From: Arenicellales bacterium
GTDB lineage: Bacteria; Pseudomonadota; Gammaproteobacteria; Arenicellales; Poriferihabitantaceae
Direction of reading: 5' to 3'
Assembly (NCBI GenBank): GCA_965231905.1
Contig: CBDDOO010000002.1
Span: 138,192-202,191, forward strand
Length of the DNA: 64,000 bases
The notes below the pieces were generated by a model. The model made no database searches. It had not been told where the DNA came from and saw only the letters and a list, made by a program, of their open reading frames with translations. Position numbers and translations under genes: made by a program. Below, one piece after another: positions 16,687 through 20,000 of the stretch. How positions within the stretch are numbered: the first letter of the stretch is position 1; each line of letters starts with the position of its first letter.

Positions 16687-16782
16687 GGATGGATTTGACT
16701 GTAAACTGTCATATAATCCTGTAAGAGATAATGATATCTGAATCCTTGACAAGGGTTCCGAGAGAACTTGTTACAATGATTG

Positions 16783-16878
16783 CCAGCCAGCCAGCCAGCC
16801 AGCCAGCCAGCCAGCCAGCCAGCCAGCCAGCCAGCCAGCCAGCCAGCCAGCCAGCCAGCCAGCCAGCCAGCCAGCCAG
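16783..16878. repeat. perfect tetranucleotide microsatellite (CCAG)x24
   Basis: Read directly: 96 bp with no interruption. It translates as (PASQ)8 in the long ORF and (LAGW)n on the opposite strand. Confidence 0.98.
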
Positions 16879-17022
16879 TATGATTCTGTGCGGTATCTGG
16901 CGGCGGGTTCGAAGGCTCTGGTCCGTTCTGCCCGCTTGAGTTTTTGTTTTCCGCCGCTCGCGCAACGGCGCTCTCGTCGCGCCGCCTTTGTATGTGCGGC
17001 GCGGTCTTCGCCCCGTTTGAGG

Positions 17023-20000
17023 ATGGCGGGTCGCGTAGTCCTTCTTGCGGCATTGGCCGCGGTATGCCTGGCCCTCCCGCTGGCGGCGATTGCAGCGTCA
17101 AGCGTGGTGAGTACGGCGTGGGTTAGCCCGGATGTCATCACGCCTTCCGACCCCTCCGCCTGCACGGTCTCGGCAGCCAGCCCGGCCCGGGGGAGCCGGA
17201 GCATGCACGAGAAGGGCCCCTTCACCTTCGCAACTGGCGTCGATAATGCCTGGCTTTTCGACGCCAGTTGCGACGGCGGGGCGAACAGCTTCGAGATCCA
17301 GGTTCATGAGGACTTTACGGAGGCGGACGCGGCGAGCGCCGCCCAAAAATACGGCAAGGCCGTCGGCCACCTGCCGAAGGCGCTTCGATCCGGGATCGGG
17401 ACGGCAACCGGGATTCTTATACTCCCCATACACAAGGGAAGTCATAGTTGGTTTGCGGGCCGGAGGAGCGGGAAGATTGGTGTCTATACGGAACTCGCGC
17501 AGGACAAGTATAACGAGGAAGCTATGGTTCACGAGGCGGCGCATGTGTCGCTGGACAATCGGGTCAGATCTGACCCCAAGTGGCTGGCGGCGCAGAAGGC
17601 CGACGGAAAGTATCTCTCTGACCATGCGCGGAACCATCCCCAGCGGGAGGACGTGGCGGAGTCCTTCCTGGCGTATCTGTCCGCCCGATATGTGCCGTCC
17701 CGGATCAGCCGGACCTGGGAGACGACAATCTGGCAGACGATCCCGAACCGGATCGCCTATTTTGACGCGCTGCTGTCCGCTGACGACATGAAACCCTTCA
17801 CCCGGGCCCCGCGGCGCGCGCTGGTTTCGCTGTCGGTGTCTTCCGGCCATGTCGCGGAAGCCGGCGGCACAGTCACCATCACCGCCACGCGCAGCATAGC
17901 CAACACCTCCGGTAAAGCGCTGACCATCCCGATTGCAGTCAAGACATCCGGAACCACCGCGCAGTCCGCAGACTACACCGCCCTGGCCACCTCTATCAGC
18001 ATTGCCGATAACGCTACCACCGGCACGACCACCTTCACGGCTACGGCAGATACTGTAGACGAGGCGCCGGAGACGGTCGTGGTGGAACTCGTCAATACCC
18101 GTCTCCCGACCGGTACGATAGCGGGTACCCACGATGAAGTGACCATCACCATCGTTGATGACGACCCGACCGTTGTCTGGCTGTCGCGCGTCGGCAGTGG
18201 CGAGGTATCGGAAGGCGGAGTGATTGAATTCACCGTAAGACTGTTGCGTACCCTGATCGCTGGAGAAACCATTGACGTGCCGTTATCCATCCGTGGCGCG
18301 GGCGTCACCACCGCCGACTGGACTCTGGACCTGAAGACCGCTCGAACCGGCCCCTCCCTCAACACGGGCGTGAAGTTGCTGAACCGGACCACGGCGACCC
18401 CGAAGCTGAGATTCTCCGGCGCCGGCGCCCGATTATCCACCCTGCGATTATATACCGCAGACGACACAGTAGACGAACCGACCGGCGAGAGCTATATCAT
18501 TGCCCTGGGTCCGGACGGCACCGCAACCAACGGCTTTGATGTCACGACCCTGGATACCAATGTCGGCGGCGGCGCCGACCCGGGCGCCTCCAATACCTTT
18601 ACGGTTCAGGTCCACGAAGCGGCAGACCACAGCGTATCAATCGGCATGGACACGACATCGGCCAATGAAGGCGCGGCTGGCGCCACCGCCACTTACGGCA
18701 TTGGTCTCCCCGTCACTCCGGCCCGAAGCGGCGGCTTCCACGTCCATGTCTGCGTCAGTGGCTCCGCCACCTGGATCACCGACTATGAACTCCGGGATTC
18801 ATCCGACCACCGCTTCAGTCTGGATACCAACGGCTGCGTCAGCGGCGGAGTATCCCTGCCCCTGGTGGAGTCCGTGGATGCATCTCCCGCTTTTCACATT
18901 TTTGTGAAGGGCGATGCAGACGTTGAAACCAGCGAGACCGTCATCCTGACCGTGAGCGAGCGCGCCAGTGGCAAAAACGCCACGCCCCCGGATGTCGAGA
19001 TTGATTCTGCCAACAACCGCGTCACCTTCACCATCACCAACGACGACGCTACCCCGACGATTCCGGTCATCACCATCGCCCCGACCACGGCCAACACCCC
19101 GGTCACCGAAGGCGCGGCGGCCAGTTATACCCTGACCGCCACCCCGGCGCCGGTTTCGGCGGTGACAGTGAACCTGATGGTAGCGGATGACGCCGACAGC
19201 GACTTTATCGCCGCCGCCCATGAAGGCGCCAAGACCGTCATGATCCCGACCGCTGGCACAGCGACCTATACAGTCACCACGACGGGCGACCGCGTCTACG
19301 AGGCCGATGGCTCCGTGACCGTGACCGTAGCGGCCGATGACGCCACCCCGGCGACCTACACCGTGGGCGACCCGTCGAGCGCATCCATTGAGGTAGAAGA
19401 CGATGATACGTCCGATGTATCGTTGAACGCGGCGACTCGCAGCCGCGCCGAAGACTCCGGAGCGACCGAAGCCGGCGCCGAACTGACGATTGCCGCGACC
19501 CGCGCGCTGGAGACGGCCCTGACTGTCTCCTACACGCTCGGCGGCACAGCGACCTGTGGTACGGATTACACCATCGCCGGCGCGACCTGCGACAACGACG
19601 GAACCGGAACCGGCACGATCACGCTGCCGTCCGGCGCGGCGGCGGGCGAAGGAGTCCCCATCCCGATCAGAATGGTCAACGACCATATAGCGGACAACGG
19701 AGAAACCATCATCCTGACCCTGGCGAGTGGTTCCGGATACGGACTGGGGAACCCTGCGGCCACCACTGTGACCATTTACCAGAATACCGGAGAGGCCAGC
19801 TACTCGATTCAGGGAGAACCTCATACCGGCGCGACCCTGACCATCCAGCGCGACCAATCCGACCCGGAAGGCGATGGCGGCGACCCGGATCGCAGTTACT
19901 CGTGGGCATCGAAGGCTGCCCTGACCGACCCGGTCTGGACCCCTGTTGCCGGAGAGACCGGGAATAACCTGGTGGTGGGCGCTGGTCTGTTGCATCATCA

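Follow-up and report, generated by a model that had tools for sequence, protein, structure and literature searches.

A (CCAG)24 tract upstream of a giant surface-protein gene in a sponge-symbiotic bacterium: a candidate slippage-prone element at the predicted transcript 5′ end

In a handful of host-adapted pathogens, repeat-driven phase variation is textbook knowledge, with translational (frameshift) switches represented by the autA/autB, opa, lic, and hgp types. Here, we analyzed a perfect (CCAG)24 tetranucleotide tract located upstream of a 5.1-kb surface-protein gene in a 64-kb stretch of contig CBDDOO010000002.1 (hereafter, the window), which belongs to a sponge symbiont of the Arenicellales/'Candidatus Poriferihabitaceae' clade; full-text searches yielded no account of repeat-driven phase variation in sponge symbionts. 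Among known systems, Moraxella catarrhalis uspA2 comes closest; this gene encodes a large outer-membrane adhesin and carries an AGAT(n) repeat (~13–23 units) in its 5′ untranslated region, 132 bp upstream of the open reading frame (ORF) (PMC7302503), with 13–18 units in closed genomes, 6–23 units across strains, and mRNA changes that are graded rather than all-or-none (PMC7302503; PMC4679880, citing Attia and Hansen 2006). In Haemophilus influenzae, 7-bp repeats ~100 bp upstream of hmw1A/hmw2A and a poly-T/A tract ~120 bp upstream of Hia (13–38 units or 20–49 nt) modulate the expression level and not the frame (PMC2651432, citing Dawid et al. 1999). Three further systems involve tetranucleotides, including (i) Neisseria meningitidis autA/autB, in which an AAGC tract (3–40 units) varies among isolates of one clonal complex (PMC5118866); (ii) N. 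meningitidis nadA, in which a TAAA tract upstream of the −35 element acts via the spacing of distal operator elements (PMC2791445); and (iii) the type III methyltransferase (mod) genes of Haemophilus, which carry 12–27 AGCC repeats (table in PMC2651432).

The locus described here resembles uspA2 in that a tetranucleotide repeat (24 units) is found at nearly the same distance from the start codon (138–144 nt here, 132 bp in uspA2). It differs from uspA2 in its unit, in the GC-rich composition of the tract, and in the location of the tract right at the predicted transcription start; in addition, the host lives in sponges and is no human pathogen, the encoded protein does not belong to the trimeric autotransporters, and the effect on expression is a proposal. 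As with hmw1A/hmw2A and Hia, a long repeat lies upstream of a large surface-protein gene, while the units (AT-rich in H. influenzae), the position relative to the start sites, and the mode of secretion (two-partner or trimeric autotransporter in H. influenzae) are different. autA/autB share with our locus a tetranucleotide tract at the 5′ end of an autotransporter(-like) gene; however, their tract is part of the ORF, where it directly follows the start codon within the region coding for the signal sequence and works by frameshifting, whereas the CCAG tract is upstream of the start codon. nadA provides a tetranucleotide outside the ORF of an adhesin gene that acts on transcription, but in our locus a conserved −10 element is found upstream of the tract. 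The mod repeat AGCC is CCAG in another register; however, the mod tract is inside the ORF of an unrelated gene class and acts by frameshift. The general design, a promoter-proximal repeat grading the expression of a surface protein, is thus known; new are the sponge-symbiont setting, a repeat position kept across a gene family while the unit turns over, and the link to a Calx-beta protein.

The tract consists of 96 bp of uninterrupted CCAG at positions 16783–16878 (+ strand). In addition to direct reading of the sequence, Tandem Repeats Finder reported a repeat of period 4 at 16782–16878 (24.2 copies, 100% matches, no indels), and a 12-mer pattern search yielded 22 overlapping exact matches within the tract, with none of 100 shuffles being comparable; the perfect tract described in an earlier note on this DNA was thus confirmed by three approaches. 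In a repeat census of the whole window, the runner-up tetranucleotide run contained only three units, making the tract the sole long repeat of its kind in the 64 kb.

A predicted promoter directly precedes this candidate slippage-prone element. A −35 hexamer with a perfect match to the consensus (TTGACA, 6/6; 16746–16751) is found 20 nt upstream of an extended −10 element, TGtTACAAT (16769–16777), which ends 5 nt before the tract; both elements recur in homologous loci, and the hexamer pair is one of only two pairs with 11/12 matches in 128 kb (both strands of the window). Based on the usual sigma-70 geometry, transcription is predicted to start 5–9 nt after the −10 element (16782–16786), i.e., in the first repeat unit. 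The promoter is preceded by an AT-rich stretch (16692–16745), which represents the onset of lineage-specific DNA and could provide an UP-element region, and the tract is followed by a GC-rich untranslated leader (16879–17016) that, by alignment, is partly homologous to the leaders of the loci L083–L086 and L091. Both conserved hexamers lie upstream of the tract, unlike in hifA/hifB (TA) and opc (poly-C), where the repeat forms the promoter spacer; for the hexamers that flank the tract, TTGCCA (16780–16785) and TATGAT (16879–16884), a distance of 17 nt is reached only with 5 units, compared with the observed n = 24. The tract is instead predicted to lie between the promoter and transcription start on one side and the start codon on the other, which is the arrangement of uspA2, uspA1, hmw1A/hmw2A, and Hia.

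Nine homologous loci from other symbiont assemblies show a common layout that includes a −10 or extended −10 element, usually with a −35 element 20 nt upstream, a repeat within 0–5 nt, a partly conserved leader of 138–226 nt, and the signal peptide. In L083, TTGACA and TATAAT are separated by 20 nt and followed without gap by (TCGCCGGG)10; L084 has the same hexamers and spacer, with the last T of the −10 element also representing the first T of the repeat (gap of −1), and carries (TCGCCGGG)5, while L085 (same hexamers, spacer of 20 nt, gap of 0) carries (TCGCCGGG)25, arranged as 3+22 units with one irregularity, and L086 (same hexamers, spacer of 21 nt, gap of 0) carries (TCGCCGGG)8. L087, L088, and L089 present no good match to a −35 element but an extended −10 element, TGgTATAAT, which abuts (CGCCAGAG)6, (CGCCAGAG)4, and (CGCCAGAG)6, respectively; the L087 protein is also encoded on a fourth contig, L090, whose sequence starts within the tract. 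L091 has TTGACG, a 20-nt spacer, and the same extended −10 element as the window (TGtTACAAT), followed after 3 nt by (CCGCCGAG)12. Four different units (CCAG, TCGCCGGG, CGCCAGAG, and CCGCCGAG) are thus found, lineage by lineage, at one position. Of the promoter elements, only the −10 element directly before the repeat is shared by every version, and three of the four have the TG extension. On rotation (CGCCGGGT, CGCCAGAG, and CGCCGAGC), the octamer units prove to be related to each other; this similarity suggests a single ancestral repeat that evolved in concert within each lineage, and the CCAG unit of the window could be derived from a GCCAG core.

Unit numbers differ between closely related loci. 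L083 and L084 carry 10 and 5 units, respectively, and are 99.4% identical over 1.5 kb upstream and 98.9% identical over 1.7 kb downstream; L087, L088, and L089 carry 6, 4, and 6 units, encode an identical protein, and have flanks that are 99.85–100% identical. Apart from one (GT)7, no other repeats were found in the homologous loci.

The unit of 4 nt is not a multiple of three, all three forward frames are open through the tract, and the frame arithmetic of the earlier note was right: at n = 24, the 1793-codon ORF shares its frame with TTG 16780, ATG 16776 leads to a stop at TGA 16881–16883, and losing one unit or gaining two would fuse the two frames, with n = 20, 23, 26, or 29 all joining the ATG 16776 frame to the long ORF. 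Two details required correction, as the distance between the tract and ATG 17023 is 144 nt (16879–17022) rather than 145 bp, and ATG 16776 is not the only ATG in front of the tract; ATG 16731, in the same frame, also precedes it. Frame analysis thus delimits a 50-codon ORF through the tract (16731–16883, + strand) that begins at ATG 16731 and contains ATG 16776 as an internal ATG. This ORF has no counterpart in the homologous modules, is absent from the protein collection, and is probably not translated; moreover, ATG 16776 overlaps the predicted −10 element and would therefore not be part of a transcript from the predicted promoter. The upstream frame used as a protein query retrieved only unrelated PASQ-like low-complexity proteins and one homologue, P0169.

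The start of the protein was located by comparison with the family. More than 20 homologues begin at the signal peptide (consensus M-R-x-x-A-x-A-V-L-L-A-x-L-A-A-x-C-L), the nucleotide sequence shared by the window and L081 sets in at the signal peptide, and a strong Shine–Dalgarno sequence and an ATG are found at this position in L081, L082, L087, and L091. L083–L086 start at this point with the TTG of a conserved cgcTTGAGG, matching TTG 17017 of the window; the two start candidates of the window, TTG 17017 and ATG 17023, both lack a good Shine–Dalgarno sequence. Because the homologues start at the signal peptide, the tract is placed 138–144 nt upstream of the start codon, i.e., outside the translated ORF, whereas tracts of frameshift phase variation are located within it, downstream of the functional start codon. 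The N-terminal extension that the earlier note had derived from a fusion of ATG 16776 to the ORF is consequently unsupported. Gene callers had started three family members (P0001, P0121, and P0122) at an internal methionine 60 codons into the ORF, a mis-start that hides their signal peptides. The main frame is open through the repeat in L083–L086; an in-frame stop is present between the repeat and the start codon in L087–L089 and L091, so that no tract length can fuse the frames there, and no start codon upstream of the repeat is conserved across the modules. The design shared by these loci therefore points to an effect of leader length.

We propose that the (CCAG)24 tract is a slippage-prone element with which the transcript begins and which adjusts the amount of surface protein as a graded dimmer rather than as a frame switch, an interpretation that we judge somewhat more probable than not. 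Transcription from the extended −10 element would start in the first unit, making the repeat the 5′ end of a ~240-nt leader. Replication slippage would add or remove units and alter the leader length while leaving the protein frame untouched, and leader length would act on transcript level, stability, or translation, resulting in amounts of surface protein that differ, in a graded manner, from cell to cell and from strain to strain. Of the contingency locus postulated in the earlier note, the slippage-prone repeat in the expression region of a surface gene is retained, while the mechanism of frame fusion is not; its fallback suggestion, that the tract acts on the leader or on transcription, is the one favored by the evidence.

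Several observations weigh against an expression-tuning tract. A standard promoter scan with 16–18 nt spacers identified no promoter, the 20-nt spacer is non-optimal, and the transcription start is a prediction. The leader alone showed a marginal folding score (z = −1.75), and leader and tract together folded no better than shuffles (z = +1.08); RNAalifold on five leaders provided no covariation support, and Rfam yielded no match, whether the gathering threshold or an E-value threshold was applied, so that no conserved RNA structure or known RNA family explains an effect of length. The difference between 6 and 4 units in L087–L089 comes from short-read or re-assembled data of possibly related samples, to which assemblers may have contributed. 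L081 and L082, two homologues located behind type I secretion genes, have no repeat, which indicates that the repeat is not required for expression of the family. Finally, no second copy of the CCAG locus was retrieved: exact-protein look-ups (with GloB, P0001, P0002, P0003, and P0121) returned no records, a whole-protein scan of genome contigs found no relative, a metagenome scan with the left flank and the tract gave no match, and none of ten tract-spanning ORF translations was present in the protein collection; that the CCAG tract itself varies as its octamer counterparts do is therefore an expectation from the homologous loci.

Among the other explanations, a translational on/off switch would have slippage bring ATG 16776 or ATG 16731 into frame with the ORF, or take TTG 16780 out of frame, and would yield a PASQ-repeat extension. 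The unit length, the open frame between tract and ORF (with fusion of the ATGs at n = 23 or 26), the open main frame in L083–L086, and the poor Shine–Dalgarno context of TTG 17017 and ATG 17023 are all compatible with such a switch, yet a family that starts at the signal peptide, with Shine–Dalgarno and ATG there in four homologous loci, in-frame stops that prevent fusion in L087–L089 and L091, and the lack of a conserved upstream start codon make it very improbable. In addition, an extension of more than 80 residues ahead of a Sec signal peptide is implausible, and an open frame of 46–48 codons in DNA of 60% GC would, by our estimate, occur by chance in about one of five cases. It is improbable, if less so, that the tract lies upstream of the real promoter, with TATGAT (16879–16884) as the −10 element, and, as in nadA, sets how far and in which helical phase a regulator site or the AT-rich upstream elements lie from the core promoter. 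The hexamer TATGAT (5/6 matches) does directly follow the tract, AT-rich sequence precedes it, and nadA offers a precedent (PMC2791445); but this hexamer has no TG extension and no usable −35 element (the repeat provides at most 3/6 matches), and it has no counterpart in any homologous module, while the −10 element before the repeat is conserved in all nine.

A neutral microsatellite, generated and maintained by slippage because the non-coding site tolerates it and with no effect on expression, is an unlikely explanation to which the relatives without a repeat and the long CCAG tracts in many unrelated contigs nevertheless lend some weight. Against it, the repeat has been kept at one promoter-proximal position in at least four diverged module versions with differing units and is associated with a mosaic surface-protein gene; no other long repeat is present in any of these loci or in the 64 kb of the window. 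We consider it scarcely credible that the tract or its length was produced by the assembler; repeats are error-prone in assemblies, and the L090 contig breaks inside its tract, but homologous loci assembled independently also carry repeats at this position, and 96 bp with unique flanks is far below the typical length of the long reads used for megabase contigs such as the source contig.

In a broader view, sponge symbionts of several lineages may share a portable cassette, consisting of a promoter, a hypermutable repeat from the transcription start site, and a leader, in front of giant Calx-beta surface proteins; the unit would turn over (4-nt CCAG and three related 8-nt units) while the position is kept, and together with head-domain swapping, this would represent a contingency-locus system in uncultured mutualistic animal symbionts. 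We put forward this view tentatively, as somewhat short of an even chance. If true, a clonal symbiont population could hedge the display level of a host-like adhesion protein; Calx-beta is also the module from which sponges build their own aggregation factor (PMC5400394). A tract that works as proposed would mean that, in one of the oldest animal lineages, uncultured mutualists rely on the bet-hedging device of pathogens, and that this device sits on a protein with a domain of the sponge aggregation and allorecognition factor (PMC5400394). The conserved promoter–repeat layout also provides a search pattern for more such loci.

Another feature of the leader is a short ORF (MILCGIWRRVRRLWSVLPA*; 16880–16939, + strand) that starts 1 nt after the tract and whose ATG position is conserved in homologous leaders. 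An ATG soon after the repeat (ATGAGCG...; ATGATTC in the window) is conserved, along with the next ~60 nt, across module versions (L083 ~2192, L091 ~2127, and L087 ~2104). The frame of this ORF relative to the main ORF is not conserved; in L091, by visual inspection, the TGA that terminates the ORF seems to overlap the main ATG. An N-terminal extension or extended signal peptide starting at this ATG was rejected, as the ATG is in frame only in the closely related L083–L086. Three other candidate mechanisms were also rejected: the spacers of three promoter versions, inspected by eye, share no dyad that would fit a MerR-type promoter (suggested by the 20-nt spacer); a G-quadruplex motif fits only the TCGCCGGG unit; and Rho loading on C-rich RNA would suit CCAG but not the octamers, which are not C-rich.

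The gene downstream of the tract (TTG 17017 or ATG 17023 to 22161, + strand) encodes a signal peptide, a domain with an HExxH motif, Calx-beta repeats, and a C-terminal outer-membrane beta-barrel. The N-terminal Sec signal peptide (MAGRVVLLAALAAVCLALPLAAIAAS) is plausible by visual inspection and is conserved across homologues. It is followed by a conserved, metalloprotease-like head domain of ~230 residues (17203–17890) with an invariant HExxH and a downstream Glu. This domain has no Pfam or NCBIfam match; its confident AlphaFold2 model (pLDDT 85) is weakly similar to the zinc (Pro-Pro) endopeptidase PPEP-1/Zmp1 of Clostridioides difficile (Foldseek probability 0.93–0.99, E ~1e-2). The Calx-beta repeats lie between this head domain and the barrel region (21100–22158), for which Pfam OMP_b-brl gives an E-value of 6e-6, below its cut-off; neither a match to the Pfam autotransporter domain (PF03797) nor a PDB sequence match was found. 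The AlphaFold2 model of the barrel (pLDDT 72.7) has ~18 strands, as compared to 12 in classical autotransporters, and Foldseek matched it to TonB-dependent receptors and to the barrels of EstA, Hbp, and BrkA at query-normalized TM-scores of 0.35–0.41. The designation as an autotransporter in the earlier note thus holds for the architecture (signal peptide, passenger, and C-terminal barrel), which is autotransporter-like, while a place in the classical (type Va) family is uncertain; the protein may represent a distinct class of barrel-anchored surface proteins. No relative was found in the viral collection.

Copies of this gene present a mosaic pattern. Compared with window positions 17203–22158, a second copy on the same 1.59-Mb contig, P0122, is 99–100% identical from about residue 200 but 65–70% identical in the head domain, and P0121, which belongs to another genome, reaches 100% identity beyond about residue 500 but only 68–89% before it; these identities imply swapping of head domains or gene conversion, possibly between genomes. 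Mosaic patterns of this kind are typical of surface proteins under diversifying pressure, and we therefore count the mosaic copies, along with the break in synteny described below, as further signs of such pressure on the gene. A subset of homologues (L081, 3724–4473; L082, 5636–5902; proteins P0012, P0008, P0023, P0032, and P0169) is located directly behind type I secretion genes (ABC transporter and HlyD/AprE) and has a conserved in-frame ORF (MRHLQVLSGHVRRR...) upstream of the signal peptide; L081 is interrupted by an insertion sequence (IS).

Upstream of the tract, the window contains coaBC, a glutamine amidotransferase gene, and gloB. GloB is 90% identical to its counterpart on a 'Candidatus Poriferihabitaceae bacterium' chromosome and 76–87% identical to those of Arenicellales and 'Ca. 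Spongiihabitans' genomes, all of which are sponge symbionts. Nucleotide synteny with the three closest genomes (L001–L003) covers coaBC, the amidotransferase gene, and gloB and ends at 16691, 5 nt past the gloB stop codon; in these genomes, the tract is absent, and no relatives of the large gene are found nearby. The DNA that is specific to the lineage at this site therefore comprises the promoter-like region, the tract, and the 5.1-kb gene. In related marine bacteria, the neighborhoods of gloB contain other long simple repeats, including (ACCAA)14 (L013, 14116–14185), G18 (L005, 1065–1082), and (TG)6G13 (L009, 6672–6695), all of them intergenic or beside short ORFs. Tracts of (CCAG)10 to (CCAG)31 were also found in 60 viral or proviral contigs of IMG/VR (L092–L151), which have 31–69% GC; many of these tracts are at contig ends.

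Elsewhere in the window, an IS5-family transposase ORF (327 aa) is present in three copies on the − strand (3038–4021, 49211–50194, and 50420–51403). The three ORFs share identical rows of small tandem repeats at an equal offset and are therefore copies of one element; the fact that two of them are adjacent suggests a recent IS expansion, as in host-restricted symbionts. A low-GC block (52001–54000) has a GC content of 0.38, as compared to ~0.53, and two ORFs (29487–31079, − strand; 57155–59728, + strand) show weak similarity to adenine methyltransferases of the Alw26I/Eco31I type; the block and these ORFs may represent foreign DNA or restriction-modification genes.

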